Of a stretch of DNA of 64,000 nt, positions 1-36,556 are shown one piece after another (positions within the stretch are counted from its first letter, which is position 1; each line of letters begins with the position of its first letter). The DNA lies in assembly GCA_963749235.1 (NCBI GenBank), contig CAVVLV010000001.1, forward strand, positions 410,989-474,988. The letters are read 5' to 3'. The position numbers and the translations under genes are program-made. The notes under the pieces are model-generated. The model was given only the letters and a program-made list of their open reading frames with translations. It was not told where the DNA came from and ran no database searches. The DNA is from an uncultured Thermoplasmata archaeon. GTDB taxonomy: Archaea > Thermoplasmatota > Thermoplasmata > Lutacidiplasmatales > UBA184.

Positions 1-1
1 T

Positions 2-2188
2 ATCTCGTTTGACTGGCGGGACAACCGCATGTACGTTGCCAATGGAGGATCCGACAATGTGAGCGTTGTCGATGCGCGCATGAACGTGCCCCTTGCTTCT
101 ATCGCAGTCTCCTACGACCCCGTCGCGCTCTCTCAGAACAATGATACCGGGATTGTGTACGCTGCGGATTGGACGGCAGGCAATGTCGCGGTCATCAACG
201 AGAGTGTCTCGAAAACCGTCAGGTTCCTCGCCCTCAACCCTGGACCCGATCAGGTCACGTGGAACGGACTTACGGGGGAAGTAGACGCCACAACCTTCTA
301 CTCCGGCCAACTGGTTCAAGTCGATGGGTTTTCGGATCAGCTCGTATCCGCAAGCCCGGTATGGTACGCCCTTACGGGTATCGCCGTCGACTCTTCGAAT
401 GGACATGCGTACGTCGCGAGCGGTGCCCGAAGCGAGGTCTATGACGTCGATGGATCTGGTTCCATCCTCGGATTAGCCCCCGTCGGAGACTTCCCAATTG
501 CACTTGCGTACGACGGCACGAATGGTATGGTCTATTCGACCAGCTTGTACAACGACTCGGTATCTGTCATCAACAGCACGACCGATCACTTGGCGAGCAC
601 CATCTCTCTTGGCGGGGTCCTGGGAGCTAACCCCGCCGATATCGTCTTCGACTCAAGTTCCGGCTACCTCTTTATCGCAATGCACGGTTGCCTCTGCTTT
701 GGACCCGCGAACATCACGATACTCAACACGCGGACGAATCGGATAGTTGGCTCCATCCAAGACTGGGTGAATCCCGGGCCTAGTTCCATCGTGATCGACA
801 AACAGAATCGCGAACTCTACGTGACGGACGATTACTCCAACCTGCTTTGGGCGTTCAATCTGTCCACGGACAACCTGACGTCGTTGACACCCGTTGGCCT
901 TGCCCCAGAAGGAGCTGCTCTGGACCCGCTCAACGGGTACCTCTATGTCACCAACAGCGGTTCCAACAACGTGAGTGTAGTCAATACATCGACTAACTCC
1001 GTTCTAGGTTCCATTAATGTGGGCTCGGATCCATTCGGAGTGACATTTGACCCGCTGAGTAGAGATATCCTCGTCGCCAACGAGGGCTCGGGGACGCTCT
1101 CGATCATCAGCGGAGCGTACGCTCCGGTCGCGACATTCACCGAGTCAGGACTGCCTACGGGCACGGAATGGTGGGTCAATGCGACCGATGAATCGTCGGC
1201 AAATTCGACGGGGACGACCATTAGCCTAACTCTCGCGGACGGGTCATACCCCTACACAGTAGCCTCCGCCAACAAGCAGTTTCAGGCGACCGGGGGCACG
1301 TTGATCCTGAGCGGAGCCATTGCATCGGTGTCGGTAGTGTTCACCGAGCTGGCCCACGAAGTGACGTTCACCGAAACCGGCCTTCCCGCCGGAACCCCAT
1401 GGGAGGTCTCGCTCAACGGAACACCGCTTACGTCGACCTCCCCGTGGATCAATTTCACGGAGGTCGCGGGTTCCTACCCGTTCATCGTGGGTGGCCTGTT
1501 CTGGTACGACTCCACACCAACCACGGGGGAGGTCTCGGTCGTGGCTTCTAACCAATCGATTCAGATCGCGTTTTCCCTCGTTCTCGACCAGTTCCTCATC
1601 GGTGAGTCGAACTTGCCTTCGGACACGAATTGGTCCATGACGCTCGGCCAGACAACGGAGTGGTCGACCCAACCCTGGCTCGAATTCAACGTGACCAATG
1701 GGACCTACAACTACTCGATCCGGTCCGTCGACGGGTACGCGGTCACATTCCTGACGCACTCGGACTCCGACGCTGTTGAGTTTCGACTCGCTACGACCGA
1801 TACATACTCCGGTCAACTTCAGATCTACACTCGATGGGTGAACGCGACACTAGAGTTCATGAAAGAACCTAGCACCAGTGGGACTGGCGGTCTGTTGGGA
1901 CTCTCCGAGGTCGATTGGGCCGGTATCATCGTCCTGGTCACGGTCGTTGCAATCGTGGGAGTGATCGCATACCGCAGGTCACGACACCCCGTGCATGCTC
2001 CCGTGTCACCCCCCCCCCCCGCCCGCAGACAAGTAGCCGCGCATACCTTCGGCGCGGGTACTCCCCCCTCGCTCCTCTCCGGGGTCCCTCCACCAATGAC
2101 TGGCGCAAGGCGGCGTGGTTCCACGCGCGGTTCGGGATCACGGTTGGACAGTTACGACTCGCTGCACCATTGGCGGAGTATAGGGTAG
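2..2188 (+). CDS. YVTN-family beta-propeller repeat cell-surface protein (5' partial; reading frame open to window start), C-terminal TM anchor + RRSR + Pro-rich tail
   Basis: Repeated ~40-aa units of the type 'YVTNsGSnNVSVvd' throughout; C-terminal hydrophobic helix GIIVLVTVVAIVGVIAY followed by RRSRH and a poly-Pro stretch encoded by a C12 homopolymer; no stop between position 2 and the first ATG at 29. Confidence 0.7.
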   Translation: MSFDWRDNRMYVANGGSDNVSVVDARMNVPLASIAVSYDPVALSQNNDTGIVYAADWTAGNVAVINESVSKTVRFLALNPGPDQVTWNGLTGEVDATTFYSGQLVQVDGFSDQLVSASPVWYALTGIAVDSSNGHAYVASGARSEVYDVDGSGSILGLAPVGDFPIALAYDGTNGMVYSTSLYNDSVSVINSTTDHLASTISLGGVLGANPADIVFDSSSGYLFIAMHGCLCFGPANITILNTRTNRIVGSIQDWVNPGPSSIVIDKQNRELYVTDDYSNLLWAFNLSTDNLTSLTPVGLAPEGAALDPLNGYLYVTNSGSNNVSVVNTSTNSVLGSINVGSDPFGVTFDPLSRDILVANEGSGTLSIISGAYAPVATFTESGLPTGTEWWVNATDESSANSTGTTISLTLADGSYPYTVASANKQFQATGGTLILSGAIASVSVVFTELAHEVTFTETGLPAGTPWEVSLNGTPLTSTSPWINFTEVAGSYPFIVGGLFWYDSTPTTGEVSVVASNQSIQIAFSLVLDQFLIGESNLPSDTNWSMTLGQTTEWSTQPWLEFNVTNGTYNYSIRSVDGYAVTFLTHSDSDAVEFRLATTDTYSGQLQIYTRWVNATLEFMKEPSTSGTGGLLGLSEVDWAGIIVLVTVVAIVGVIAYRRSRHPVHAPVSPPPPARRQVAAHTFGAGTPPSLLSGVPPPMTGARRRGSTRGSGSRLDSYDSLHHWRSIG
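2009..2020 (+). repeat. C12 homopolymer tract inside the cytoplasmic tail-coding region of the YVTN protein
   Basis: 12 consecutive C read directly in sequence (encodes PPPP); slippage-prone. Confidence 0.9.
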
Positions 2189-2245
2189 GAGGCCCGGCCG
2201 GGATTTTCTAAATGGGAGGATTTCGATACAATTATTGTCGTCGAA

Positions 2246-3862
2246 TTGAGTTACCTTGGGTTAGCAAAATCCGTTTTCACTCAGGGTTCTATCGTCTTGA
2301 AAGTGTATCCGCCGCCAAGGCGGATCATGAAGCCTCGGGTTAACCCAATCGGCCGCGCCATTATTTCGGTCGCGATTGCTGTGCTCTTTTTCGGTGGGCT
2401 GATGTACGCGACGGGCGACGCGATTGCGGGATCCGATGGGGGTTGCTACTGCCCCAATTGCGGCAGCTGCGGTCTGTGTCCCACAAACTACAACTTGTAC
2501 CCGGTTGCGGCGGCGGCATCAAATGAGACCAATGCGTCCATTACGTTCTATCTAAGCTCCTCGAGTGGGGAGCCCAACGGCGTCGCCAACGTCAACTTCG
2601 GTCTCAACACTTCTTACCTGTGGCCGGCTGCAACAACTGTCGGAGTAGGAGGGATGTTGTATCCAACGACAGTTTCTGTCGGATATCTTGCCCCGAACCT
2701 GACGTACGACTACAAGGTGAGCGCCTCAGCGAGCTGCACGGACACCAATGGCCACCACAACTATGCAGGGTCGACCATCGGGACCTGGACCGACAAGGCA
2801 AACACCATGGGCGCGGTGTCCGGCTACTTCACGAACACAACTGGTTCTCCGGCCCCTGTCGGATCGGTTGTGACACTCTACTGCTATTCTTCTAGCGGCG
2901 TCGCCATCGACAACAACTATGGATGGACGACAACGGCCGGGTATTACTCGCTCTACTTGCCTAGCTTTGCGGTAAATCGGTGCACCGGGGGTCTCGCATT
3001 GAACTTCTTCACGCAGAACAACAAGAACGGAAACAACTGGAACGGAAATTTCAATGTCACTTTCCTCGTTTACACGTACGGTGACTACAACATCGTCGTA
3101 CCGCAAATCTACGTCAGTCCGTACTACCCGATCGGGGTGGGACCCAGTAATGTGATGCAAACAAACGGTGCGGCTGGAAGTTACATCACGTATACTCAGG
3201 GGACGACGTTGACGACCAGCTCCACAACCTGCTGGCAGCTCTTCTGGCTGTTTACTGGGTGCGTTGCCTCCGCGACAAGCGCCGGAGCGAGCAAGAGTTA
3301 CTCAGCAGAAAACGAGAGCTTGAATGTGGACCAGCGCTTCTTAACCACGGGCACAATGGGCTTTGTTGCAATGACTAGAGCGACCAACATCTCTGTGGAT
3401 CGCTACGCGACTTTCGGGAATCCGCTTTCCCCTGGACCAGCCCCGATTCCCACCTTCATGACTCCTCAGAATTTTACGGAGTTCCACCTCTACTATGTGT
3501 CGGGCTGGGGTACAGGAGGACAGGGCCAGTTCATCCAGTACAAGTACCCTATTGGCGGCTCGGTCACGACGAGCACTGTCACTGAAACCGTGGGCGTGCA
3601 GTCGGTTGACTTCTCTATCGGTGTTGACATCTACGACGTAGATATTTCGACATCCGTGGCGGACGTAACATGGTCCCAAACTGCTACCGAGACCCAATCC
3701 AACACGCTCTCGTGGGAGGCGTTCGCGAATGGGTCGAACGGGGAATGCTTCGTGGTTTACGGGGAGGGGGGTTCTCAGTCATCTAACACCGCTGACGCCA
3801 TCGGGCTGTGGGCCTACACGCCGAACGGCGGGCCGGCAGGGTCAAATTGTCCTGACCCCTAG
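2246..3862 (+). CDS. Secreted/membrane-anchored hypothetical glycoprotein (N-terminal signal-anchor, Cys-rich CYCPNCGSCGLCP motif, carboxypeptidase-regulatory-like beta-sandwich segment)
   Basis: Hydrophobic N-terminus IISVAIAVLFFGGLMYA; many N-x-S/T sequons; AT-rich TATA-like region just upstream (2189-2245); no recognisable catalytic motifs. Confidence 0.55.
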   Translation: MSYLGLAKSVFTQGSIVLKVYPPPRRIMKPRVNPIGRAIISVAIAVLFFGGLMYATGDAIAGSDGGCYCPNCGSCGLCPTNYNLYPVAAAASNETNASITFYLSSSSGEPNGVANVNFGLNTSYLWPAATTVGVGGMLYPTTVSVGYLAPNLTYDYKVSASASCTDTNGHHNYAGSTIGTWTDKANTMGAVSGYFTNTTGSPAPVGSVVTLYCYSSSGVAIDNNYGWTTTAGYYSLYLPSFAVNRCTGGLALNFFTQNNKNGNNWNGNFNVTFLVYTYGDYNIVVPQIYVSPYYPIGVGPSNVMQTNGAAGSYITYTQGTTLTTSSTTCWQLFWLFTGCVASATSAGASKSYSAENESLNVDQRFLTTGTMGFVAMTRATNISVDRYATFGNPLSPGPAPIPTFMTPQNFTEFHLYYVSGWGTGGQGQFIQYKYPIGGSVTTSTVTETVGVQSVDFSIGVDIYDVDISTSVADVTWSQTATETQSNTLSWEAFANGSNGECFVVYGEGGSQSSNTADAIGLWAYTPNGGPAGSNCPDP

Positions 3863-3888
3863 AACTCCGGGGGCGTGACGCCCGGGGC

Positions 3889-5205
3889 GTGCCGATGGGT
3901 AGCGGAGAACCAAACCAGCCGAGACGGCGAGCCGCGTTCGCAGGCTTGGTGGTCGGGATTGTCGTTGCAAGTGGAGTCTTCGCAGGATGGGCGGTCACCC
4001 GACCGAACGCCACAGCCAGCCCTCCAGTGATTGACGACGGGCCTACGCTGTATGGCGCCCTACGCGCCATCAATGAGTCCGTACGCAATCAACTAGGTGG
4101 CCCTTGGACGCTGTACGGGGTTTGGGGAATCGCTACTCCACTACCGTTCAGCCCGACATCGATTCCTTGGCCTCGGATCAACGAGAGTGTCAACTCCTGC
4201 AGCGCTGAGTTTCCCGGAGTTACCCTTTGGAACTCCACGATCCCACTGTTTAACGGGACTTTCAACTCCGGGACGGCCCCGTTTTGGCAGTTCGTCTTCT
4301 TCTCCAACGCAAGCCATAGCATCGAGGTAGCAACCGATGTCCTCGGGACCGCTCACGTCTACGCACCCATGCCGTACAACAGCACGTGCGCGGAGTCGAC
4401 CTGGCTTTCTACCGCGTCTCCCTGGAACTGGGCTCTAATGTTGACCAGCTTTCCAGTCGATTCCTCGGTTGCCGCCAAGACGGCGTGGGCCGCAGGCGGA
4501 TCGGAGTGGACGTCGAACAATCCGGGAGGGTACGTGACGTATTACTACGGATTCGCCTACTGGGGCTCGGGCAACCTTATCGGGAACACCGTCAAGTATT
4601 CGCGATGTGGGATCGTCGGTTTCGCCGCCGTTCAACCCGTTCAGATGTTCATTACGAACCCGGGCGGGTCTCTAATTCAGAACTTCAACGGAACTCAAGG
4701 GTGCGGGAATGTGTACCGCCTGGACCCCACGATTTACGCTCCCTACGTGGTCGATTTTTCGATACCGAAAAGTTCCGGCGCAGACGCCTCGACCTGGGTA
4801 AACATGACCCTTGGTTTGACCTCCCCTCCGCTCGACAACACTTTTCCAGCCACGTACGACGCGGGCGGCTTGGTCACATGGATGGTCGCGCTTAACCTCA
4901 CCAACGCCGGTAGTTCTGCGCTGGGGACGGGGGCTCCGGGATGCTCACAATGGGTTTCGAATCTCAGTTCGTGCTCGGGGAACGCCACGGGTTGGTTTGC
5001 GGTTCTTACTTCCGCGAGCGGGGAGTGGCTCGACAGCTTCGGCACTACCTTGCACGGCTCGGCCTGGGTGATCCCTAACGCCGCATTCGTCTCTCAACAA
5101 CACATCACCATCGTTATCCCGAGTTCGTGGAACGTAACCGGAGACTCTCTGAGCATTTCGAGCACCACACAAAACGTCACGGCCAGCGGCTCCGCGAATC
5201 TGTAA
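3889..5205 (+). CDS. Secreted hypothetical glycoprotein with N-terminal signal-anchor
   Basis: N-terminal TM LVVGIVVASGVFAGWAV; dense N-x-S/T sequons; same orientation and compositional style as the upstream surface protein. Confidence 0.55.
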   Translation: MPMGSGEPNQPRRRAAFAGLVVGIVVASGVFAGWAVTRPNATASPPVIDDGPTLYGALRAINESVRNQLGGPWTLYGVWGIATPLPFSPTSIPWPRINESVNSCSAEFPGVTLWNSTIPLFNGTFNSGTAPFWQFVFFSNASHSIEVATDVLGTAHVYAPMPYNSTCAESTWLSTASPWNWALMLTSFPVDSSVAAKTAWAAGGSEWTSNNPGGYVTYYYGFAYWGSGNLIGNTVKYSRCGIVGFAAVQPVQMFITNPGGSLIQNFNGTQGCGNVYRLDPTIYAPYVVDFSIPKSSGADASTWVNMTLGLTSPPLDNTFPATYDAGGLVTWMVALNLTNAGSSALGTGAPGCSQWVSNLSSCSGNATGWFAVLTSASGEWLDSFGTTLHGSAWVIPNAAFVSQQHITIVIPSSWNVTGDSLSISSTTQNVTASGSANL

Positions 5206-7029: not shown

Positions 7030-7521
7030 ATGAATCGGCCAGCGCGCTGGGCTGGCGTCGGATTTTTCCTGTTCTTCGCCATCCTCATCGCTTGGCAGCT
7101 CGCAGTCCACGGCTTCGAACCGATCCTTCTGGCCCTTGTCGCCGGGGACGCGTTCCTGGTTTGGTTCGTGATGTACTACACTGCTCCCGGCCCGGTCGAA
7201 CTACGGCAGGCCGAGTCGGGTTTCGAGTTTGTCTACGCGGGGGGCCGGGCACGCCAAGTCGCGATTAAGGGGGCCCAGCTACACTTCAAGCTGGTCGAGC
7301 GCGTCTTGAAACCGAACCCTGGTCGATTTGAGAAGGCCATCGACGACGCTCGCTACTTCGCGGTGGTGGGAGTCGACCGAATTGCCCTAACCCCGGAAGC
7401 GTTCGAATTCCTTGCTGGAAGCATCCTGCGTGCAGGCTACGCTACGCGGACCCGAATCAAGCCGAACCCCCCAGTGGGTTTTTGGCACATCCAGGAGTTC
7501 GATCGCGCGAAATCCAGCTGA
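7030..7521 (+). CDS. Small membrane protein: two N-terminal TM helices + cytoplasmic beta-rich (bacterial-PH-like) domain
   Basis: Hydrophobic segments VGFFLFFAILIAWQLAV and ILLALVAGDAFLVWFVMYY; no enzymatic motifs; the family call is inference. Confidence 0.45.
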   Translation: MNRPARWAGVGFFLFFAILIAWQLAVHGFEPILLALVAGDAFLVWFVMYYTAPGPVELRQAESGFEFVYAGGRARQVAIKGAQLHFKLVERVLKPNPGRFEKAIDDARYFAVVGVDRIALTPEAFEFLAGSILRAGYATRTRIKPNPPVGFWHIQEFDRAKSS

Positions 7522-7572: not shown

Positions 7573-10500
7573 CTAATCATCTGGGACAGCCGTGTCAGCT
7601 GGGCCAGGGGCCCCATTCTCTCTCGGCGAACTGCTGGCCCGACCTTCTGTCCCACCTTGGCTCTCCGGTTGGGCGGATTTGGGGTGGGACGGGCCCATTG
7701 GGACAGCTGCGTCAGAGATTGGTCCAGCAGGTCGCAAGTCGTAGACTCGAAACCGTGTTCCCTCAAGCCGGCTCCGTCTTCGGTCTAGTCCAAGGGACCG
7801 CAATGCAGTGCCTACCTGCTGCTCGGAGTACGTTCCACGCTCGGAGGCCCTCAGGAGCGCGAGAACCTCTTGGGGGGTGGATTCGGCTCTTCCCGCGACC
7901 AGAAGGGCGCTCACGACCTCCCGAACCTGGCTGACTAGGGGGTCGGTCTCAACCACCGGCAACGGGGGCCGGTCCGCCACCTCCGCCTCGACAGCCCCAG
8001 ACCCGCTCAGGAACGGCCAGACCTGTATCCCAGGAGTGGCGAACGGCCGGAACGCCGCCCTCCCCTCCTTCCACACCAGCCCGACCCCGTCGGCCCACAG
8101 AGAGAGGCCCGGGAACCCATCCTCGACCAACGCCAGGGTCCTCGGCACCGCGGAGCGGTCCGGCAGGACGATCAGGACCCGGTGGCCAGCCGCGCGGGCT
8201 TTCTTCACGTTCCGGATGACCTGCCCCGCCGCCTTGGCCACGGTCGAACACTCGACTTCGACATTGTAGGTCGCCGAGCCCCACTGGAACTGGCCGTCGG
8301 GGGTCAGGATGCCCGCGACCTGCTTCGGGACGCTGAGAGCTATCCCGCGCTTCTCCAGGAAGACTGCGAACTCGGTGAGCGTCTCAATGTGCTCCTCCCC
8401 CTCGTTCCGACGGCCCTCCAGGGCCGCCAGATGGACCTGTCCCCGCGAAGTGAGGCGGAGTCGCCCGGCGTCTTCGTTGGGCTCCACATCGCCTTCGGAA
8501 GCGGCCAGCGCGAGCGCACCGTCCAGCTGGGCCCCAGGGAGCATGGTCGAGTCCTCCAGCTCCTCCCGGGTCCTCGGGCCCGTGGAGAGGCCCGCCATCA
8601 CGCCTTGGACCACCTCGGGCCCGACGAGCCACGGGGAGGCCTCTGAGTCCTCCCGCTGGGCGTATCTTCGGGAACTCTCGGTCACGGTCCGGTGGTTCTC
8701 GGTCGCCAAGGGACCCAGAGGCGGGCTGGGGTCGGTCGTGAGCTTCACGAGGCCCCCTGACACGGCCAGGGCGACCTCGTGCGGCCGGAGGCCGTCCACT
8801 AGGTCCTGGGGGGTCCAGCCGTGGGTCTGCCCGTTGACGATCTTCCACGCGTCGTCCATGTCCTCGACGCCCAGCGAGAACAACAACCACGCGTCCACGT
8901 TGCCGAGCAGGGCGGCCCGGACCCGGGGCGGGACGCGGTGGAGGAACTGCGTCGCGACCACGACGTGGAGGCCGAACTTCGCTCCCTCGCTCAGCATGTC
9001 GGCCAGCGCGGGGATGGCGTAGTTGTGCACCTCGTCGAGGACGAGGTAAACCGAGTGGTCGGGCCGTCCGGACCGCTGGACCGCCGCCCACAGCTGGCTC
9101 AGGTAGACCGCGCCGAGGAAGTTCGCTCCTTCGGCTCCCAGAGCCGATTTGGAGAGGTTCAGGAGCAGCAGGCGGTGCCTCAGCAGGCGGTCGAAGGAGA
9201 CCGCCCCGCTCCGCTGGCAGAGCGCGACCCGCAACAGGGGGTTGGTCGCGATCTTGCCGACCTTGTCGAGCGACGACATCGTGAACTGGTAGTCCAGCCG
9301 CGGCAGGTGCCGCTCGAGGAAGTCGCGGAGAGGCCCGGGAGGGGCGGTCCGGATGAATCTCTGGAGCGCGGGCTTGGACGAGAGCAGGTGGTACGCGTCG
9401 ACCAGATTCGAACCCGGTGTCTGTGACAACCCTTGGACCAAGGCGCGGAGGACCAGTTCGGCCCTCCCGCCGATGCTCTCCTCGCCCCACGCGCTCCGGA
9501 TCGCGGCGAGGAGGTCGCCCGCGAGCGCCTCGGCCCAGCGGTCACGTTCTGTATCGCTTTCTTCGTCGTCGACCGGGTCCGGCTGTCGGAGCAGGTTGAG
9601 GGGAACCGAGACCATGGTTGTGCCATCTTCTTGGAAGGTGGCGTGGGCCGGGTCGATCTCGATTGTCTCCGAGGCAATCTCTGGAGAGAGGCGCGACTCG
9701 ATCCCCCCTACGAGCGTCCCCGTGGGCTCGACCACGACTACGGTCGCATCGGGTTGCTTCGCGAGGATCTGGAGAACCAGATTCAGAGCCAGGGTGGACT
9801 TTCCCGACTGGGTCCGCCCCAGTAGGGCCGCGTGATTCCACTCCGGGGGGAGTGCCACGTGACGACCGTCATAGGCCCCGAGGATGAACTGCGGACGGGG
9901 ACTGGGCTCGGGATCAGGGTGGTACCGCAAGACCCGAACCGTCGGCAACTGGGGGGCGACCGGGGAGCGGGAAACCAGGCTCTCCCTACCCGCCCTTCCC
10001 CGCGGAGCTCCTGCGTACGAGCACTCCGGGTGGTACGTGGCCCACGGGATCGAGAGAAGGTGTCCGAGTTCGGTCGCGGAGACATCGCGGCGCCCGCGCC
10101 GGTTCGAGAACCGCGCGAAGTCGTGGGTCGCGAAGGCCGCGTGGAAGGGTTGCTCCTTCTTGCGCGGAATGACCTTCCACGTCCGCCAGGGGACGCCGCC
10201 GAGGGTGGTCCACTGTTCGAGCCATGCCCCGAGCGCGATCAGCGACTGGTCCGGTTGCGGGCCCATCAAGTGGGCGCGCAGCTCGACGTGGTAGGCTGGT
10301 TCGGCCCGACGGGCGTCCATCTCGGCCCGCAAGGCGCGGCCGTGCCGCTCCGCGTAGCTCATATAACGGGCCGAGAAGAGACCCGACTCCCAGACCCGGG
10401 CCCGCTGGAACAGGAGCTGAAGGACCACGTCGTGGTCCTGGAGCGTCTGAGAGCCGAGGGTCCGAAGGAGGAAACCTGCCGCGTCCGCATCTTGAGGTAT

Positions 10501-10821
10501 GCGAAGTGGCAAGTGGTGATGCCGTTGCACCGCGACCGCCCGTGCGAAGATCCCGCGGGTGGTGAGGTCGGCGAGCGGGCACGCGATCGGCGACCCCGCC
10601 GCGACGCGATGGCGCGTGTTCTCGAGATAGATCAACATCGATTCGAGGTCGGTCGCCTGGGGAGACCCGAGCGCGTATCGGACCCGCCCCGCCGGCTCTC
10701 GGTGGATCTCGAGCCAGAACGGGGCGAGCGAGGTCCAGACCAGCGGTGGCATCTCGGGCGGCTCCTCGGTCGGCGTGGGCAGCAGCAGTTCGCGGTGGAC
10801 ATTTTCAGTGGTGGCGTCCAT
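7573..10821 (-). CDS. Large (1082 aa) FtsK/HerA-superfamily P-loop ATPase with N-terminal unknown domain, central wHTH, PD-(D/E)xK-like nuclease-like domain and C-terminal wHTH
   Basis: Walker A GRTQSGKST; Walker B VYLVLDEVHN; FtsK-like LHVVVATQ motif; segment ILTPDGQF...YNVEVECSTVAK resembles restriction-endonuclease-fold core; helix-turn-helix-like segments near residues ~740 and ~1000. Confidence 0.7.
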   Translation of the reverse strand: MDATTENVHRELLLPTPTEEPPEMPPLVWTSLAPFWLEIHREPAGRVRYALGSPQATDLESMLIYLENTRHRVAAGSPIACPLADLTTRGIFARAVAVQRHHHLPLRIPQDADAAGFLLRTLGSQTLQDHDVVLQLLFQRARVWESGLFSARYMSYAERHGRALRAEMDARRAEPAYHVELRAHLMGPQPDQSLIALGAWLEQWTTLGGVPWRTWKVIPRKKEQPFHAAFATHDFARFSNRRGRRDVSATELGHLLSIPWATYHPECSYAGAPRGRAGRESLVSRSPVAPQLPTVRVLRYHPDPEPSPRPQFILGAYDGRHVALPPEWNHAALLGRTQSGKSTLALNLVLQILAKQPDATVVVVEPTGTLVGGIESRLSPEIASETIEIDPAHATFQEDGTTMVSVPLNLLRQPDPVDDEESDTERDRWAEALAGDLLAAIRSAWGEESIGGRAELVLRALVQGLSQTPGSNLVDAYHLLSSKPALQRFIRTAPPGPLRDFLERHLPRLDYQFTMSSLDKVGKIATNPLLRVALCQRSGAVSFDRLLRHRLLLLNLSKSALGAEGANFLGAVYLSQLWAAVQRSGRPDHSVYLVLDEVHNYAIPALADMLSEGAKFGLHVVVATQFLHRVPPRVRAALLGNVDAWLLFSLGVEDMDDAWKIVNGQTHGWTPQDLVDGLRPHEVALAVSGGLVKLTTDPSPPLGPLATENHRTVTESSRRYAQREDSEASPWLVGPEVVQGVMAGLSTGPRTREELEDSTMLPGAQLDGALALAASEGDVEPNEDAGRLRLTSRGQVHLAALEGRRNEGEEHIETLTEFAVFLEKRGIALSVPKQVAGILTPDGQFQWGSATYNVEVECSTVAKAAGQVIRNVKKARAAGHRVLIVLPDRSAVPRTLALVEDGFPGLSLWADGVGLVWKEGRAAFRPFATPGIQVWPFLSGSGAVEAEVADRPPLPVVETDPLVSQVREVVSALLVAGRAESTPQEVLALLRASERGTYSEQQVGTALRSLGLDRRRSRLEGTRFRVYDLRPAGPISDAAVPMGPSHPKSAQPESQGGTEGRASSSPRENGAPGPADTAVPDD

Positions 10822-10945: not shown

Positions 10946-11215
10946 GTGGCGGCCGAGATGGCGCAGGGAGGCATCCACGTTTCCTCCAAGGCATCGTCCG
11001 AAGCACAGTCCTCGCGGCCGCCATCTCATTTCCCGCGGTTCGGTGGAGCGGACCTGATGGTTTCGCTCCGAGAGCTGAAGGCGATGGTCCAAGGGCTGGA
11101 CGCGTCGAACCCTGTTCGGATCCTCGTCCTGGGCGAGCCCGACGAGATCCCACGTTCCGAGTATGCAGCCAAGGTGCCTGGGTGGTACCGCCTTATCGTG
11201 ACCCCGGCGGATTGA
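10946..11215 (+). CDS. Small hypothetical protein (89 aa) between ATPase and integrase, opposite strand
   Basis: Only non-overlapping ORF in the 370-bp gap; no recognisable motif; could be non-coding. Confidence 0.25.
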   Translation: MAAEMAQGGIHVSSKASSEAQSSRPPSHFPRFGGADLMVSLRELKAMVQGLDASNPVRILVLGEPDEIPRSEYAAKVPGWYRLIVTPAD

Positions 11216-12527
11216 GCACGACCTGGTGCCCATTCACGGTCGTGACAACCGTCCACCCCTCATCGAGGTACCGGGGCAGTTCCGTACCTTCCACGAGGCG
11301 TTGGCGTGTCCCGTTCGCATCGGCGTTCTGTCCCATCTTCTTGGTCACGAGTTCCTGGAACGCGCCCACGTCCAAGCTGTCGAAATCCAGCTTGGCGAGC
11401 TCCTTCTCGGTGTATCCCAAGCCCATCAGCATCACCTTGGCCATCTTGGATTGCGCGTCCTGATCGGTGCGCGAAGGGACCGTGGAAAGGAACGGCTCGC
11501 AGCGCCGGTAGGCCGCCCGCATCTCCTCGACCATTGTCGGCTGAAGTTTCTTCGATAGATTGTACCGGCCGCTCACGCCCAGGTCATGCCCGAGGATCGC
11601 CTCGCGGAAGTCCCGCGGGATACGCCCCTTCGCCTCCGCGAGGAGCAGTTGCGTGGAGGCGTAGCTCCGGAGCACGTAGGGCCTCCAGCTGGTGTCGCTC
11701 GGCACCACCTTGTTGATGGCCGTCCGCAGTTCGGCGGTGAGCGCTTTGACCGTCACGAACCCGTTCTCGGTCTGCGTGTCGCGAACTGCGACAAGAGGGG
11801 ATTGTCCCGAGAGAGCTTCCGGGTCCACGGTCGCGCCGCTCCTCCACCGGGGCCGAGTGCGTCGCTCCTTCAGGTAGGCGATGAGGGTCTGAGCAAGCTC
11901 CTCGGAACCGAAGGTCACGTAGGCACGGCGGTTCTTGCTCAGCGCCCCCGGAACCCGGATCAAGAAGGGCAGGGTTCGGAATTCGAGGGTTCGTACGTCC
12001 AGTTCCGGCAGGTCGCCCAGCCGGAGGGCGGTATCGCCGGACCGGTAGACGGAGAACGCGCCCGGCCGAAGTCCCGAGTGAGCCATGAGCAGCGCGGATA
12101 CCTGGCCCCGCAGCGGAAGGGCGCGGAGCAGCCGCCCGAGTTCGTCCTGCGTCGGAACCCGCTCGTTCTCGATCGAGACGCCGCGGATCACGGCGAGTCG
12201 GGGGAAACCGTGGAAATCGACCTCGTGATGTCGGAGGAAGCTGGACACCCCGACGAAGGTCTTCGCGATGTACGTCGTGAGGCGTCCCCGCTTCTGAAGG
12301 TCGCCTGCATACACCACCCATCGCTTCCGAAGGCGGGAGGGATCCGAGCGGGCCTCGGCCAGCAGTTCCGAAGGGCCAAGACCGACCTCATGGAGGCAGA
12401 GGCCCAACTGTCGCAGGTTGACGTCCGCCGTCCTGACGGAACGGAGCTGATTCTCATCGAACCAGCTTCGGATCAGGGGGTCTTCCCGCAGTTTCTGGTG
12501 ATTGAGCCGCGGGGGTTTTCGGGGCAT
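11193..12527 (-). CDS. Tyrosine recombinase / phage-type integrase (444 aa) with ~100-aa C-terminal extension
   Basis: Conserved catalytic region ...VLRSYASTQL...ILGHDLGVSGRYNLS (R, H-x-x-R, Y); located immediately downstream of a tRNA 3' end. Confidence 0.8.
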   Translation of the reverse strand: MPRKPPRLNHQKLREDPLIRSWFDENQLRSVRTADVNLRQLGLCLHEVGLGPSELLAEARSDPSRLRKRWVVYAGDLQKRGRLTTYIAKTFVGVSSFLRHHEVDFHGFPRLAVIRGVSIENERVPTQDELGRLLRALPLRGQVSALLMAHSGLRPGAFSVYRSGDTALRLGDLPELDVRTLEFRTLPFLIRVPGALSKNRRAYVTFGSEELAQTLIAYLKERRTRPRWRSGATVDPEALSGQSPLVAVRDTQTENGFVTVKALTAELRTAINKVVPSDTSWRPYVLRSYASTQLLLAEAKGRIPRDFREAILGHDLGVSGRYNLSKKLQPTMVEEMRAAYRRCEPFLSTVPSRTDQDAQSKMAKVMLMGLGYTEKELAKLDFDSLDVGAFQELVTKKMGQNADANGTRQRLVEGTELPRYLDEGWTVVTTVNGHQVVLNPPGSR

Positions 12528-12581
12528 GAGTGGGCACCCCTATTCCTCCCTATAAAGAATCCAACGCCCCGAAATTTGGGA
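12528..12581 (-). promoter_or_regulatory. Putative integrase promoter (TTTATA box ~27 nt upstream of ATG on minus strand)
   Basis: Minus-strand sequence ...GGATTCTTTATAGGGAGGAATAGGGGTGCCCACTCATG; AT-rich island in a GC-rich context. Confidence 0.4.
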
Positions 12582-12688
12582 CGCCCGTGCTGGGATTCGA
12601 ACCCAGGTCTGAGGCTCCGCAGGCCTCTAGGATAATCCATTGCAGCAGGTCGGGGGAAGACCCCGGCCCGTAGCTACCCCACACGGGC
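12582..12688 (-). tRNA. tRNA-Arg(GCG), intron-containing (107 nt; ~33-nt intron in the D-arm region)
   Basis: Acceptor GCCCGTG/CACGGGC, T-arm CTGGG-TTCGAAT-CCCAG, anticodon arm GAGGC-CTGCGGA-GCCTC, discriminator G; D-stem GGGT...ATCC with A14,G18,G19 separated by a 33-nt insertion. Confidence 0.55.
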
Positions 12689-12730
12689 AATCGGTTGGGA
12701 CGATGTCCCGGCGGCGGCGAGCGGGGTCGG

Positions 12731-14139: not shown

Positions 14140-16012
14140 AGGCCGGCCTCGAAGTGCACCAGCAGCTCTCGACCGGCAAGCTGTTCTGTGCGTGTCCGAC
14201 CGAACTTTCCGAGGAAGTCACGCGGACGTTCGTCCGCTCTCTCCGGGCGGCCGGCGGCGAGAATCGTTCCGTTGACGCCGCAGCCGCCCTCCAAGCCGCG
14301 CGCGGCTTCCAGTATCGATACGAGGTCGTCCCACCATGCTGTCACGTCGAGATGGACGAGGAGCCTCCGCACCCGCTCGACCCGCCCGCCCTGGAGGCGG
14401 CGCTCCTGCTCGCCCTCATGGTGGGAGCGCGTCCCGTCGATGAGGTCGAGGTCATGCGGAAGATCGTGGTCGACGGCTCTACGACTTCCGGTTTCCAGCG
14501 AACGGCGTTGGTGGCCACGGGGGGCCACATCGAGGTGAACGGACGTACTCACCGCATCGACTCGATCTGTCTCGAGGAGGACGCCGCCCGCCGGATGGGG
14601 GAATCGCCCGACGGGGTCACGTACCGGCTCGATCGGCTCGGGATCCCGCTCATCGAAGTCGCAACGGGACCGGACATCACGAGCGGGGCCGAGGCCCGTG
14701 AGGTCGCCGCCGAGATCGGTTCGCTCCTGCGCGCGACCGGGAGGGTCCGCCGGGGGATCGGCACGATACGGGAAGACCTCAATGTCTCCACCGAAGGAGG
14801 TCGACGGATCGAGATCAAAGGGGTCCAAGAGCTCCGAAAGATCCAGGACTACGTCGATCGGGAGGTCGACCGCCAGGGAGTGCTGCTGGGGGTTCGGGAC
14901 GAGCTCGTCCGTCGCGGGGGCCTCCGTTCCGGACGACCCTCCGCGCGACGTAACGGCCCTGTTCACGGAGATCCACTACGGACCGATGGCGGAGGTCCAT
15001 CGAACCGGCGGCGTCGCCCTCGCGCTCGTCCTGCGAGGATTTCACGGCCTTCTCGCGTCCCCCGCCGGCACCGAGGAGCGACTCGGAAGGGAGCTCGCGA
15101 GCTACGCGAGAGCGGTGGGCCTGGGCGGTTTGCTCCACTCGGACGAGCTACCCGGCCATGGGATCGAAGAGGGGCTCCTGCGCGAGATGCGCCCGGCCCT
15201 CGGTCTGGGGGAGCTCGATGCGTTCGTTCTCGTGTCCGCCCCGTCCCGAGAAAAGGCTCTTCGGGCGCTCGAGCGGGTCGCGACGCGAGCCCGTGCCGCG
15301 ATCGAGGGGATACCCGAGGAAACGCGCGACCCACTTCCCGACGGTCGGACCCGGTTCTCCCGCCCTCTCCCGGGCCGGGATCGGATGTATCCCGAGACCG
15401 ACGTGCCCTCCGGTCGAGGTCACGAGCGAACTCCTCACGAGGCTCGGCGGCGACCTTCCCGAGCGGCCCTCGACACGACGGGAGCGATTGGCGCGCCAGT
15501 ACGAACTTCCGATGGAGCTCATCCGGCAACTGGACAGTACCGAGAGCCTCGAGGAGTTCGAAGCCCTTGTCCAGCGGGGTCACCCCTCGGGTCTGGTGGC
15601 CCGTCTCCTGACCCAGGACGTCCCCGCGGCGCTCGGCGACCGTCCGGATGCCGCCCCGTTCGCGCTCGACCTCCTCGACTCCGTTCTCGCGGCGGCCGCG
15701 TCGGGCCGCTTCTCGAAGGAGGGGATCCCGGCGGTGTTGGCCGCGCTCGTCGCCGGGGCGCAGTCGGTCGATGCCGCCGTCGATCGCGCGGGGTTTTCGA
15801 CCCCTCCGGGCGAGGACCTCGATTCGATCGTGGATCGGGTTGTCCGTGCGAACGCTCTCCTGGTCCAGGAGCGGGGCGAGGCCGCGCTGTCTCCCCTCAT
15901 GGGGGACGTCATGCGGGAAGTACGCGGCAAGCGCGACGGTCGTGAGGTGGCCGAATCCTTGCGGCGCGCGATCGCGCGACTCCGAAGCGGGGATCCGGCG
16001 TCGTCTCCGTAG
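14136..16012 (+). CDS. gatE: Glutamyl-tRNA(Gln) amidotransferase subunit E, reading frame interrupted twice (+1 at G5 run ~14914-14918; +1 near ~15408)
   Basis: N-terminal MKAGLEVHQQL...CPTEL; middle and C-terminal GatB/YqeY-like segments continue in the other two frames; total length ~625 aa matches GatE. Confidence 0.75.
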
Positions 16013-16019
16013 GAGCGTC

Positions 16020-16754
16020 ATGGTACCCCCTTCGCGTCGGCGTGCGCTCCCCCGTCCGCGTCGCGCATACCGAGTGGTCGTGACCGACGTCGACGGGACC
16101 CTGACCGACGCGTCGCGCCGATTGGATCCGGGGGCGGTCGCGGCGATACGCTCGCTCGAGGACCGCGGCATCCCGGTGGTGCTGGCGACCGGGAACGTCC
16201 TCCCCATCGCTCTCGCGCTGCACCGCTCGCTGGGACTCTCCGGCCCGATCGTCGCCGAGAACGGAGGTCTGGTCTGGACTTCGGGACCGAACGGCGAGAA
16301 CCGGATCGAGCGGCTGGCCAACCCGGCTCTCGCCCGCTCGGCGTTCCGGATCCTCGTGCGGGCCGGTCTTCCGGTACGGCGCCTCTTCACCGATCGATGG
16401 CGCGAGAGCGAAGTGGCCCTGGAGGCGAACGTTTCGGTGGCCCGCATCCGCCGCGCGCTCGCGGGACGCCCGGTCCACGTGGAAGCCACCGGGTATGCGA
16501 TCCACTTGATGGAGTCCGGTGCGGGCAAACGCCCTGCGCTGGACCGGGTCTTCGCCGGACTCGGGATCGGCTGGTCCGAAGCGATCGTTCTCGGGGACGG
16601 CGACAACGACGTCGAGATGCTGCGGGCCGCGGGGTTCGGCGTGAGCTTTCCGTCGGCCAGCCCCCGGGCCCGCGCCGCCGCCCGGTACGTGACCCGCCGG
16701 GCGTACGCGGCGGGATTTGTCGAAGGCCTTAAAACGAGCGGAGTTCTCGACTGA
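16020..16754 (+). CDS. HAD-superfamily hydrolase, archaeal phosphoglycolate-phosphatase/Cof-like
   Basis: Motif I VVTDVDGTLTD, motif III K, motif IV GDGDNDVEM. Confidence 0.7.
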   Translation: MVPPSRRRALPRPRRAYRVVVTDVDGTLTDASRRLDPGAVAAIRSLEDRGIPVVLATGNVLPIALALHRSLGLSGPIVAENGGLVWTSGPNGENRIERLANPALARSAFRILVRAGLPVRRLFTDRWRESEVALEANVSVARIRRALAGRPVHVEATGYAIHLMESGAGKRPALDRVFAGLGIGWSEAIVLGDGDNDVEMLRAAGFGVSFPSASPRARAAARYVTRRAYAAGFVEGLKTSGVLD

Positions 16755-17307
16755 CCGGTCTCCACGGGAGAGACCCGCGATGTTCGTCGGTCAGTGCGCG
16801 CGGTGCGGGATTCCGGCCACGCTCGGGTGTACGATCTGCGGGCGGACGTTCTGCCGCGGCTGTCTCGACGCCGACGAGCGACTCTGTTCGGATTGTCTGC
16901 AGTCCCAGCGCCAGACCAAGAACCCTGTCGAAGCCCGGGCGCCGCCCTCCCGTCGGATCGTCCGGCCGCCCAGCGCCCCCGGTCGGGTCTAGGTACTCGA
17001 CGCCGGGGAGTACCAGGGGACCGCCCGGGGTGGCGCGGCCGACCCCGAGAAGGACGACCCCCATCGCTCCGGTCACGAGACCGAAGCCGAGGACCGCCCA
17101 CGCATACTCGCCGAAATTGGGACCGATATGGACGCCGAACACCGTGGCGGGCGAGGTCCGCGCGGCCCAATGGAGCGCTACGTTGACGACCACGCCGAAG
17201 ACCCATCCCATGGCGATGAGGATCCCACCGGCAACGAAGTACCCTGCGCGCTCGTCCCCGCCCGGGTTCTCCGGCGGGGTGGCGGGGGCCTCTTGCAGGT
17301 CGTCCAC
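16729..17307 (-). CDS. Hypothetical membrane protein (2 TM) - 3' extent uncertain, overlaps zinc-ribbon ORF on opposite strand
   Basis: Hydrophobic helices YFVAGGILIAMGWVFGVVVNVAL and AWAVLGFGLVTGAMGVVLLGV; C-terminal 100 aa low-complexity, possibly artefactual. Confidence 0.3.
   Translation of the reverse strand: MDDLQEAPATPPENPGGDERAGYFVAGGILIAMGWVFGVVVNVALHWAARTSPATVFGVHIGPNFGEYAWAVLGFGLVTGAMGVVLLGVGRATPGGPLVLPGVEYLDPTGGAGRPDDPTGGRRPGFDRVLGLALGLQTIRTESLVGVETAAAERPPADRTPERGRNPAPRALTDEHRGSLPWRPVSRELRSF
16780..16992 (+). CDS. Small zinc-ribbon protein (8 Cys in four CxxC pairs)
   Basis: CARCG...CTICG...CRGC...CSDC spacing typical of a double zinc ribbon; overlaps an antisense ORF. Confidence 0.45.
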   Translation: MFVGQCARCGIPATLGCTICGRTFCRGCLDADERLCSDCLQSQRQTKNPVEARAPPSRRIVRPPSAPGRV

Positions 17308-17381
17308 GAGGGCGCGACCGGGCCGGCCGATTATGAGGTTTTGGGAAGGCGCTGCGGCGTGGGGGGGCCGGGCAGCGCGGG

Positions 17382-18005
17382 GTGGTCGGACGCTTTATTT
17401 CGGACGCCCCCGTCCTCCGGACGTCGCTCATGACGCCGCCCGATCCCCCCCGGGAAGTGACGTACCGCGCTGCCACCCTTGCGGACGCCGCGCGGCTCGC
17501 CGACGTCCATCTCCGCTCGGTGCTGGTCGCCGACCGCGGCGTCTCCTCCGAGGACCAGCTCGCGCGTCTCTCCGAGCAATTGGTCGAGCGCGAAGGGCGA
17601 TGGCGCGAGCAGCTCGCCGCACGTCCGGAGGAGCCCGTGCTGGTGGCGGAGCAACCGCCCCTCGGGATCATCGGCTATGCGGTCGGCGCCGCCACCCGCA
17701 AGCCGAGCTTCGGATACGATGGTGAGCTCGTCTCGATCTACCTGCTCCCCGAGTTCCAGCACCGGGGGATCGGACGGGAGCTCGTGCGCCGAATGGTTCG
17801 GACCCTCTATGAACGGGGGTTCGAGCGAGTGCTCGTCCGGGTGCTCACGGCGAACTCGGCTCGTCACTTCTACGAGCGACTCGCGGCGTACCCGATCGGG
17901 GTGACGAAAGTGACCGTCGGAGAGCTGGAACTCGAGGAGAGCCTCTACGGATGGCCGGATGCCGCCCGGGCGTTCGAGGCGAAATCGAGCCCGACCGGCG
18001 TCTAG
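17382..18005 (+). CDS. GNAT-family N-acetyltransferase
   Basis: Acetyl-CoA binding motif QHRGIGRELVRRMV and GNAT core. Confidence 0.7.
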   Translation: MVGRFISDAPVLRTSLMTPPDPPREVTYRAATLADAARLADVHLRSVLVADRGVSSEDQLARLSEQLVEREGRWREQLAARPEEPVLVAEQPPLGIIGYAVGAATRKPSFGYDGELVSIYLLPEFQHRGIGRELVRRMVRTLYERGFERVLVRVLTANSARHFYERLAAYPIGVTKVTVGELELEESLYGWPDAARAFEAKSSPTGV

Positions 18006-18301
18006 CCGAAACCGGTGATCGCCTTGGGGTCGCGGGGACCGCCGGGCCGCATCGGCGCCTTGCGAAGCTCCTTCGGGCACTCGACGAGCCGTACGAGCGG
18101 GGCGGACTGCACGATGTACGCCGGGAGCCCCGTGTTCGGGTCGTTCCCCGCGCGCAGGATGTTCATGATCTCGAGACGGATCTCCACGATCGACCCGTCC
18201 TTCAACTTCAAGCGGACCCGACCGTCCCCCTCCAGCACGCTGTAGTCGACGATCTCGGCGTTCGCGAGGTCCGGCGGAGGACCGCCGGGGTTGCCCATCA
18301 T
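18002..18301 (-). CDS. Hypothetical 99-aa protein occupying the position where rpl1 normally follows rpl11
   Basis: 4-nt overlap with rpl11 stop (translational coupling geometry); no recognised motif. Confidence 0.45.
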   Translation of the reverse strand: MMGNPGGPPPDLANAEIVDYSVLEGDGRVRLKLKDGSIVEIRLEIMNILRAGNDPNTGLPAYIVQSAPLVRLVECPKELRKAPMRPGGPRDPKAITGFG

Positions 18302-18765
18302 CGAGCGCCCCGAGCCGCGATACGCTCCTTGAGCAGCGTTCGCGGGTCTTGGCCGCCGACCGTGATGCCGAGGGAGACGCAGCTGCCGATCACCTGATTG
18401 GCCCGCTCCTCGTCCGTGCGGCCCTCGAGGTCGTCCCCCTTCGCTTCCGCGATCCGCTTGATGGCGGCGAGCGAGACGTCCCCGATGGTCTCGGTCTTCG
18501 GCTTGCCCGAGCCCTTCTCCTTCTTGGCCTCCTTCAACAGGAGGGCCGCCACGGGGGGCCGACCGACGACGAGCGTGAACGCGCGAGTGTTCGGGTCGAC
18601 CCGGATGATCACCGGCACGCGCATGCCGGCGAACTGCTTGGTCTCCTCGTTGATCTTCGTGACGACCTGGCCGACGTTGACGCCGAGCGGGCCCAAGGCC
18701 GAGCCCAGCGTCGCTCCGGCCGCCGCCTTGCCGCCTTCCACCAGGACGCTGACCTCAACTGCCAC
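18298..18765 (-). CDS. rpl11: 50S ribosomal protein L11
   Basis: Full-length match to L11 (PVIIRVDP...GSGKPK...IAE.K..DL). Confidence 0.9.
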   Translation of the reverse strand: MAVEVSVLVEGGKAAAGATLGSALGPLGVNVGQVVTKINEETKQFAGMRVPVIIRVDPNTRAFTLVVGRPPVAALLLKEAKKEKGSGKPKTETIGDVSLAAIKRIAEAKGDDLEGRTDEERANQVIGSCVSLGITVGGQDPRTLLKERIAARGAR

Positions 18766-19762: not shown

Positions 19763-19765
19763 CGT

Positions 19766-20008
19766 CTACAGGGTCGACAGGCCGGCCCAGAGCCACGGCC
19801 CGACCTGGTTGAAGAAGATGTACAGCATGAATCCCGTGGAACCGATCAGGATCGCGCCGAGAAACGTGATCCCGAGGACCTTGACGTACTCCTCCGAGGT
19901 CGGCCGACGGGCCATCCGGAGGATGCGGCCGTACTTGCCGTGGCCGAAGGTGCGCAGGCGACCGTCGAAGTCGTCTTGCGCACGGCGAGCGCGGTCGAGG
20001 AATGCCAT
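19766..20008 (-). CDS. secE: Preprotein translocase subunit SecE / Sec61-gamma
   Basis: 80 aa, single C-terminal TM GITFLGAILIGSTGFMLYIFF; conserved position between ftsZ and spt5. Confidence 0.7.
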   Translation of the reverse strand: MAFLDRARRAQDDFDGRLRTFGHGKYGRILRMARRPTSEEYVKVLGITFLGAILIGSTGFMLYIFFNQVGPWLWAGLSTL

Positions 20009-20014
20009 GGTACC

Positions 20015-21170: not shown

Positions 21171-21171
21171 A

Positions 21172-21179
21172 TTATAAAG
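21172..21179 (+). promoter_or_regulatory. TATA box (TTATAAAG) ~23 nt upstream of the MptE-like gene start; overlaps ftsZ 5' end
   Basis: Isolated AT-rich octamer in GC-rich context at the divergent ftsZ/mptE junction. Confidence 0.4.
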
Positions 21180-21201
21180 CGTTGGCCGGGTTTGCGCCGC
21201 C

Positions 21202-36457: not shown

Positions 36458-36546
36458 ATCGGGGTCCCGGGCTCCCAAAGCCCGAAGGATGGACCAATAG
36501 AGCAGGGCGAGGTGTGACCCTCGTCCCGTAGCTACCCCACAGCCCC
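36439..36546 (-). tRNA. tRNA-Pro(UGG), intron-containing (108 nt; 33-nt intron at the same D-arm position as tRNA-Arg)
   Basis: Acceptor GGGGCTG/CAGCCCC, T-arm CCCGA-TTCAAAT-TCGGG, anticodon arm CGGGC-TTTGGGA-GCCCG, discriminator A. Confidence 0.5.
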
Positions 36547-36556
36547 GCATCGAAGG

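Follow-up and report, generated by a model that had tools for sequence, protein, structure and literature searches.

A coupling-protein-type ATPase with a winged-helix and nuclease-like tail in a family of tRNA-integrating elements of Thermoplasmata

The window analysed here, a 64,000-nucleotide stretch of contig CAVVLV010000001.1 (assembly GCA_963749235.1, positions 410,989 to 474,988 of the forward strand) from an uncultured Thermoplasmata archaeon, carries at 7573..10821 on the minus strand a gene for a protein of 1,082 amino acids (aa). Its central domain is an ATPase of the VirD4/TraG/TrwB type, that is, of the type IV coupling proteins (T4CPs) within the FtsK-HerA superfamily, and its C-terminal region holds two winged helix-turn-helix (wHTH) domains on either side of a conserved block with the modelled topology of PD-(D/E)xK nucleases. 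The ATPase recurs, together with a C-terminal wHTH domain and the block, in TraG/VirD4-like proteins encoded on conjugative plasmids of archaea, and in Thermoplasmata the gene is the hallmark of a family of elements that integrate at tRNA genes. The protein may well be a soluble archaeal coupling protein whose winged helices would bind, whose nuclease-like block would cut and whose ATPase would pump the DNA of the element to a channel supplied in trans.

Results

A coupling-protein ATPase with additional domains at both ends

The reading frame is open throughout and has a coding-type GC fraction at third codon positions (0.83). It is not a chance frame, since more than 120 full-length homologs (41–73% identity) were found, almost all of them unnamed; the identical deposited protein is called ‘hypothetical protein VK424_01915’. 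The parts of the protein, in order from its N terminus, are as follows.

7573..10821, minus: whole open reading frame (ORF), 1,082 aa, archaeal T4CP-like ATPase with C-terminal wHTH / nuclease-like / wHTH module
9967..10821, minus: orphan alpha/beta N-terminal domain, aa 1–285 (well-predicted model), followed by a disordered linker, aa 286–306
8722..9894, minus: T4CP-type nucleotide-binding domain, aa ~310–700, with an all-alpha insertion at aa ~423–546 (Foldseek, Pfam)
9793..9819, minus: Walker A motif GRTQSGKST, aa 335–343
9025..9045, minus: Walker B motif LVLDEVH, aa 593–599
8947..8970, minus: LHVVVATQ sensor region, aa 618–625
8629..8676, minus: acidic linker SSRRYAQ(R/P)EDSEASPW (SSRRYAQPEDSEASPW), aa 716–731, between the ATPase and the first wHTH domain; invariant, predicted local distance difference test (pLDDT) below 50
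8416..8619, minus: first wHTH domain, aa ~735–802
8017..8406, minus: PD-(D/E)xK-like alpha/beta block, aa ~806–935
7732..7941, minus: second wHTH domain, aa ~961–1030, followed by a disordered tail, aa 1032–1082

An AlphaFold2 model of the whole protein (mean pLDDT 81.9), built from an alignment of 36 full-length homologs with 41–74% identity to it, has five parts: the N-terminal domain, a disordered linker, a RecA-like ATPase, a disordered acidic peptide, and the wHTH–block–wHTH module with its disordered tail. The Walker A, Walker B and LHVVVATQ motifs, which an earlier note on this DNA had picked out from the letters alone, lie where that note had placed them and are invariant or almost so in this alignment, with G335, G340, K341, S342, D596 and E597 being fully invariant; many residues of the N- and C-terminal regions are invariant as well.

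A search of the PDB by sequence with the whole protein returned nothing significant. By structure (Foldseek against the PDB), the ATPase matched TrwB, the coupling protein of plasmid R388 (1e9s/1gki; E 5e-11, TMt 0.56–0.59), and further VirB4/TrwK, HerA, TdpA and Cag-beta, with the best single TM-score being that to the C-domain of DndH (TMt 0.67). In the model, the helices of the all-alpha insertion (aa 423–546) fall between Walker A and Walker B. Pfam assigned TrwB_AAD_bind at 22.5 bits (cut-off 20.5), with FtsK, DUF87 and TraG-D_C below threshold. A profile search of 1.84 billion representatives gave 9,956 relatives, the distant ones having the ATPase alone in common with the query or, in some cases, also part of the N-terminal domain; among 44 distant homologs sampled, Pfam found TrwB_AAD_bind in 39, TraG-D_C in 38, DUF87 in 36 and T4SS-DNA_transf in 14. 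The TrwB-like fold, together with the TrwB_AAD_bind and TraG-D_C matches of the relatives, therefore identifies the central domain as a VirD4/TraG/TrwB-type T4CP ATPase. The earlier description as an FtsK/HerA-type ATPase thus holds at the level of the superfamily, whereas Foldseek and Pfam place the domain in the coupling-protein clade and not with generic HerA.

A winged-helix and nuclease-like module at the C terminus

A separate model of aa 700–1035 (pLDDT 81.6) concurs with the whole-protein model, and the two wHTH domains in these models correspond to the helix-turn-helix-like segments that had been thought to flank a nuclease-like block. The modelled block runs helix–strand–strand–strand–helix–strand (alpha-beta-beta-beta-alpha-beta), with helices at 809–823 and 865–877 and strands at 843–847, 850–856 and 881–886; the segments ILTPDGQF, YNVEVECSTVAK and VLIVLPD lie on its strands 2, 3 and 4, respectively. 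Invariant among the 36 homologs are H811 in helix 1, Q834 in strand 1, P841-D842 where strand 2 begins, E855-V-E857 where strand 3 ends, and Q867, N871 and K874 on helix 2, K874 being an invariant lysine on the helix that follows strand 3. As modelled, this layout is the PD-(D/E)xK topology with a glutamate at the usual lysine position. The lack of the canonical lysine had been seen before from the sequence (D842...E855-V-E857), and the residues of catalytic type, whose conservation among homologs the earlier note had left to be checked, prove to be invariant (D842, E855 and E857).

A hidden Markov model (HMM) of the block finds far more distant archaeal T4CP-like proteins in which the same residues are kept, including forms of 640–720 aa that do without the N-terminal domain and proteins from Nitrososphaerota; D842 and E855-x-E857 are retained down to ~20% identity. 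With the C-terminal model, Foldseek matched FokI (2fok; E 2.4e-3, prob 0.99) and Nt.BspD6I, both of which are wHTH + PD-(D/E)xK enzymes, the E values being only ~1e-3 and wHTH + Rossmann methyltransferases scoring equally. Profile alignment (hhalign) set D842 and the ExE motif on D42 and E55-x-K57 of Hjc (E 6e-4 to 9e-4), an approximate alignment in that the Hjc sequence used was provisional; Pfam Hjc matched one homolog (P0242) weakly (E 0.14) in the same register. No similarity was found by hhalign between the block and the FokI cleavage domain, the sequence of which was likewise provisional. Pfam gave no significant match to the block, only scattered noise, either in the 1082-aa protein or in homolog fragments (panels of 25 and 18 homologs for block and N-terminal-domain fragments), and PDB sequence searches with the C-terminal region and with the block alone returned nothing significant. 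These comparisons weakly support a nuclease fold for the block (p about 1e-3), and nuclease activity is no more than plausible.

The same arrangement in archaeal conjugative plasmids

Among plasmids, tblastn matched the ATPase of proteins named ‘type IV secretion system DNA-binding’ or TraG/VirD4, including those of Sulfolobus tengchongensis pRT2 and of a Natrinema plasmid, with 23.6% identity over aa 250–638. The block HMM in turn found the C-termini of these plasmid proteins, at 36–41 bits for Natrinema and 19–20 bits for pRT2. The C-terminal region of the pRT2 protein is conserved in pNOB8, pING1, pHVE14, pARN3, pAH1 and other Sulfolobales plasmids, and also in pT33-3, a 103-kb plasmid of Thermococcus nautili 33-3; the plasmid alignment shows a MarR-like wHTH domain followed by EG...KG(Y/F).V...KQ...RPD...A(I/V)EIES...EQV..N..K. 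Aligned with hhalign, the archaeal block profile and the plasmid block gave a match of 104 columns in which the motifs coincide (Prob 93.6%, E 2e-7). Given this match and the homology of the ATPases, the ATPase–wHTH–block arrangement is one that the 1082-aa protein has in common with the coupling proteins of archaeal conjugative plasmids.

The earlier view that no archaeal system of this architecture had been well described is thereby corrected: proteins of pNOB8, pING1, pHVE14, pARN3, pAH1, pRT2 and pT33-3 all carry the ATPase with a C-terminal wHTH domain and block, the archaeal TraG/VirD4-like family is already known, and some of the homologs are auto-annotated as type IV secretion system (T4SS) DNA-binding proteins. 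Full-length homology to a conjugative coupling protein, together with a C-terminal block that is no nuclease fold, had been named as grounds for abandoning the idea of a new ATPase–nuclease effector; coupling-protein homology was indeed found, whereas the block still looks nuclease-like. In pT33-3, for which conjugation and gene mutations are reported in reviews (PMC12857230, PMC12282955), mutations of the VirB4-like and VirD4-like genes are reported to abolish conjugation (PMC12857230).

The protein could instead be a plain coupling protein or translocase whose C-terminal module only binds DNA, with the block a catalytically dead scaffold or regulator and another protein processing the DNA. 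The missing lysine and the lack of a significant match between the block and any nuclease family are in keeping with this, and wHTH + PD-(D/E)xK proteins have been read as possible regulators by Steczkiewicz et al. (PMC3424549). However, the block keeps seven of its polar or charged residues (H, Q, D, E, E, N and K) unchanged from lineage to lineage, even at ~20% identity, and the same residues stand in Sulfolobales, Thermococcus and haloarchaeal plasmids, a pattern typical of an active site. Moreover, BamHI works with just such a D...ExE variant, in which a glutamate occupies the lysine position. A non-catalytic tail is considered unlikely.

The gene marks a family of tRNA-integrating elements

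The gene was followed through 43 loci from GTDB genomes, the record titles of which name Thermoplasmata metagenome-assembled genomes in 42 cases and only ‘bacterium’ in the remaining one (L041). The order of the element is tRNA, tyrosine integrase, small ORF and ATPase gene. An integrase lies within ~5 kb upstream of the ATPase gene at essentially every locus with enough flank; the co-occurrence with integrases that the earlier note had suggested checking is thus general in these loci. Two types of integrase are found across the loci, and the tRNA genes beside them vary (Arg, Val, Ile, Ala, Gln, Met, Lys or Thr). One genome holds six copies and another five. A site-specific integrase beside a tRNA target, in several copies, is a mark of an integrative element, and the ATPase gene is the signature gene of this family in Thermoplasmata. 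Some genomes have the ATPase gene broken up into shorter ORFs (L029, 10164–11795; L036, 10102–11196), probably in copies of the element that are in decay.

In the window, the elements of this core and the genes adjoining it are the following.

10946..11215, plus: small conserved ORF (89 aa) in divergent orientation to the ATPase gene; overlaps the integrase gene at the 3′ end of the latter
11193..12527, minus: tyrosine-recombinase-like integrase of 444 aa (PHROG phrog_1 integrase, 2.8e-6; Pfam Phage_integrase weak, E 0.1)
12579..12689, minus: intron-containing tRNA-Arg gene (aragorn -i), the presumed integration target and element boundary
7030..7521, plus: membrane protein of 163 aa with two transmembrane segments by hydropathy, convergent with the ATPase gene; a 40% identical ortholog has the same position in L001
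5345..6889, minus: IS66-family transposase (Pfam DDE_Tnp_IS66, 7e-40), a secondary insertion between two element genes
29..5205, plus: surface/membrane cargo genes, namely an NHL-repeat protein of 719 aa and proteins of 538 and 438 aa

The integrase gene is 372 nt upstream of the ATPase gene, with the 89-aa ORF in between and the tRNA-Arg gene beyond, and membership of a mobile element, previously suggested by the nearby integrase, is thus upheld. Orthologs of the integrase adjoin tRNA genes in 17 loci. More than 20 loci have the 89-aa ORF in this place (33–82% identity). It carries the C-terminal motif HPLRI(L/V)(L/V)LGEPDE...GW(F/L)RL and matched no known family; it could be an excision or regulatory factor.

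Directly downstream of and convergent with the ATPase gene, 27 loci encode a ~90-aa protein with two transmembrane segments and a Cys-rich loop, GEWFAAFDAC(V/L)ANPxC (L003, 13310–13570; L005, 13397–13663; and 25 other loci), where the window and L001 carry an unrelated protein of 163–190 aa, also with two transmembrane segments. Further genes are variable and include NHL, PKD or Kelch surface proteins, membrane-anchored proteins of 438 and 538 aa, a 232-aa family and DUF932. In L005, a distant locus, the region 14229–23126 downstream of the ATPase gene encodes an M78 peptidase with DUF4411, an AAA_15/AAA_21 ATPase, a DNA methylase and a large helicase, a defence-type cluster that is probably cargo of that element.

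Three other readings of the protein were weighed. The alternative offered in the earlier note, an antiviral or abortive-infection effector combining ATPase and nuclease after the logic of HerA–NurA, DndFGH or MADS, can draw on the DndH C-domain having the best TM-score, on the defence-type genes of L005, and on PADLOC, in which mad8 (5e-13) was the sole match to the defence library and HerA models matched weakly (E above 1e-4); the MADS preprint holds no domain information for mad8. The library matches are nonetheless limited to the P-loop core (aa 329–636 for mad8), and the conserved neighbourhood holds none of the partner genes that defence systems have. Moreover, the gene is no variable cargo but a core gene fixed beside the integrase in about 40 loci, with up to six divergent copies per genome, and both its ATPase and its block have homologous counterparts in the TraG-like proteins that conjugative plasmids encode. 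A defence function is thus improbable.

A role in replication or maintenance, with the wHTH domains binding an origin, the nuclease nicking for rolling-circle-type replication and the ATPase serving as helicase or translocase (or, alternatively, as an FtsK-like resolution or segregation motor), would suit the only large conserved gene besides the integrase and the small ORF in elements where no other replication gene was recognised; the name of the Replic_Relax family, derived from replication and relaxation, also fits. Against it, the ATPase groups with coupling proteins and not with known replicative helicases, and the homologs in Sulfolobus plasmids sit in the conjugation section, with the replication regions being separate (PMC4390865). 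This role is judged quite unlikely.

Finally, ATPase plus nuclease is also the logic of a terminase, a weak PHROG terminase match (2.9e-4) was obtained, and the downstream 438- and 538-aa proteins are of unassigned function, all of which would accord with a genome-packaging ATPase–nuclease of an integrated virus. Yet neither a capsid nor a portal signature was found, the genes downstream differ from locus to locus and mostly encode membrane or surface proteins, and the closest relatives are plasmid coupling proteins, making packaging highly improbable.

Remaining parts of the protein and the locus

The N-terminal ~310 aa, already described as devoid of recognisable motifs, indeed match no Pfam family and no PDB sequence, and Pfam searches with N-terminal-domain fragments of homologs gave scattered noise only. 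The domain has 23 invariant residues (alignment A6), and distant ATPase homologs also match it from about aa 95–160 onward. Two identities considered for this domain, HUH-type relaxase and primase-polymerase, were rejected because no HUH or DxD motif is conserved, only H178-V-E180 being kept. The acidic peptide at aa 716–731 is invariant family-wide yet predicted to be disordered, and is possibly a docking motif for a partner.

Over window positions 1–5205 the GC fraction is 0.57, compared with 0.65–0.72 elsewhere. The NHL-repeat protein encoded there has a C-terminal transmembrane anchor; the 538- and 438-aa proteins are also membrane-anchored and have no Pfam match. Homologs of these proteins recur near the ATPase gene at other loci. 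The otherwise ~100% identical contig L007 (DATGZO010000005.1) does not have the IS66 transposase, which therefore either inserted recently and is specific to the strain or reflects a difference between assemblies. The intergenic regions flanking the ATPase gene showed no repeat array that would point to an oriT. A GatD gene adjoins the locus, and just past it lies a 902-aa ORF (14963–17671, minus) with no Pfam match at E ≤ 0.01.

The tRNA-Arg gene was missed by default ARAGORN and by Rfam. A second tRNA, read by eye as tRNA-Pro(UGG) at about 36441–36547 (minus), was missed by default ARAGORN, aragorn -i and Rfam. Both have an insertion of ~30–37 nt directly after GGGGUAGC in the D-arm region; aragorn -i places the tRNA-Arg intron in the anticodon loop.

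Discussion

In the mechanism proposed here, the neighbouring tyrosine integrase would first excise the element, after which the two winged-helix domains would recognise a site on its DNA. The PD-(D/E)xK-like domain would nick or cut there, as MOBC relaxases do in bacteria, and the ATPase, presumably as a hexameric ring, would then pump the DNA towards a transfer channel. This channel would be supplied in trans, which would make the element an integrative mobilizable element.

MOBC is the relaxase family of Replic_Relax (PF13814; PMC5357655, PMC12857230), originally named for replication and relaxation, which has been placed in the PD-(D/E)XK superfamily and usually occurs in fusion with HTH domains (PMC3424549). 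In its members TraX of pAD1 and MobC of CloDF13, a winged helix stands at the N terminus, the active site is of restriction-endonuclease type and no covalent DNA intermediate is formed (PMC5357655, PMC12857230). Two distant homologs of the ATPase (P0184 and P0226) have the ATPase, a wHTH domain and then, where the block stands here, a Pfam Replic_Relax match to profile positions 95–175, and in pTEF1 a MOBC gene lies just downstream of, and nearly adjacent to, the T4CP gene. The 1082-aa protein looks like a T4CP and MOBC pair of this kind joined into a single chain. According to reviews published between 2019 and 2025, VirB4- and VirD4-like ATPases are encoded by the conjugative plasmids and the integrative and conjugative elements of archaea but a recognisable relaxase is not, and DNA processing for archaeal transfer is an open question (PMC6563490, PMC9905601, PMC12857230, PMC12282955). 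It is tentatively suggested that the C-terminal module is the archaeal conjugative relaxase, a MOBC-like non-covalent nickase within the coupling protein that would be common to the Thermoplasmata elements, Sulfolobales plasmids, pT33-3 and haloarchaeal plasmids. If so, the failure to find a relaxase gene on its own in any archaeal conjugative element would be accounted for, the enzyme being part of the coupling protein.

Several observations weigh against the proposed role or its relaxase variant. No VirB4-like or other recurrent large Walker-A ATPase and no channel genes were found within 10 kb downstream of the gene in ~40 loci, and no host transfer machinery was identified in the same 10 kb; it is for this reason that the channel is placed in trans and that the elements look mobilizable rather than self-transmissible. 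Neither att repeats nor a second copy of the tRNA segment were found in the window or within 10–15 kb in 16 loci, so the elements are probably longer than the sequence examined. No transmembrane segment was found in the 1082-aa protein (the top 19-residue Kyte–Doolittle mean is 1.36), whereas an N-terminal transmembrane domain is present in most bacterial T4CPs. As to the block, the canonical lysine of (D/E)xK is replaced by the invariant E857, and its alignment to Hjc is approximate for the reason given above. Compared directly by hhalign, the block matched a 101-sequence TraX alignment without significance (E 0.005–0.03, Prob below 7%), with the register as expected (TraX ADF...FEIELT against PDG...VEVECST of the block); nor was there a significant match to the Replic_Relax regions of P0184 and P0226 (hhalign; no HMM match). 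Because these direct profile comparisons are not significant, the block is not filed as a MOBC member: its architecture is that of MOBC and its fold is probably the same, with membership being weakly supported, at a level short of significance.

The conserved nuclease-like domain, with its three invariant acidic residues, its flanking winged helices and its fusion to a coupling ATPase, is a concrete candidate for the DNA-processing activity. The question of the missing archaeal relaxase becomes directly testable by biochemistry and by point mutations in pT33-3, a plasmid that is the basis of a genetic toolkit. The loci also define a widespread, hitherto unannotated family of tRNA-integrating elements in Thermoplasmata, the proteins of which are nearly all ‘hypothetical’. 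In the literature searched, which did not extend to Catchpole et al. 2023 (pT33-3), no description was found of the wHTH / nuclease-like block / wHTH tail of archaeal coupling proteins, of its MOBC-like architecture or of this element family, and all three may be new.

Comparison with known systems

With small PD-(D/E)xK nucleases such as Hjc, the block shares the predicted alpha-beta-beta-beta-alpha-beta core and the register of an aspartate and an acidic strand 3. It differs in that the match reaches only p about 1e-3, the lysine is replaced, and the invariant Q/N/K triad on the next helix is its own.

The TraG/VirD4-like proteins of archaeal plasmids (pNOB8 ORF1025, those of pING1, pHVE14, pARN3, pAH1 and pRT2, and the 1370-aa ATP-binding protein of pT33-3; ~1000–1370 aa in size) have the same T4CP-type ATPase and the same C-terminal wHTH domain and block (Q..PD..ExE..QV..N..K). 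The first ~250 residues of the 1082-aa protein are unmatched in them, and its helix 1 histidine is lysine or arginine. The plasmids also encode a VirB4/TrbE homolog and a number of membrane proteins, whereas the neighbour here is an integrase, with no VirB4 within 10 kb.

Bacterial coupling proteins such as TrwB of R388, VirD4 and MobB of CloDF13 resemble the protein in their RecA-like nucleotide-binding domain, inserted all-alpha domain and Walker A and B motifs. By contrast, the archaeal protein is without the N-terminal transmembrane domain, which in MobB is essential (PMC7431656), and adds a ~310-aa N-terminal domain and a ~350-aa C-terminal DNA-binding, nuclease-like module. In the CloDF13 record (NC_002119, L058; 6000–9300) the mob region is broken into overlapping ORFs by apparent frameshifts, and MobB and MobC were not used from it.

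The MOBC relaxases (TraX of pAD1/pTEF1 and MobC of CloDF13) likewise have a wHTH domain followed by a PD-(D/E)xK-type domain. TraX (QHHL...ADF...FEIELT) and the block have in common the helix 1 histidine, the strand 2 aspartate and the strand 3 E-x-E; here, however, the module is fused to a T4CP and followed by a second wHTH domain. CloDF13 is itself mobilizable and carries its own T4CP, MobB, which also assists relaxation (PMC7431656), so that in this plasmid, too, an element brings along its own coupling protein together with a MOBC relaxase, MobC.

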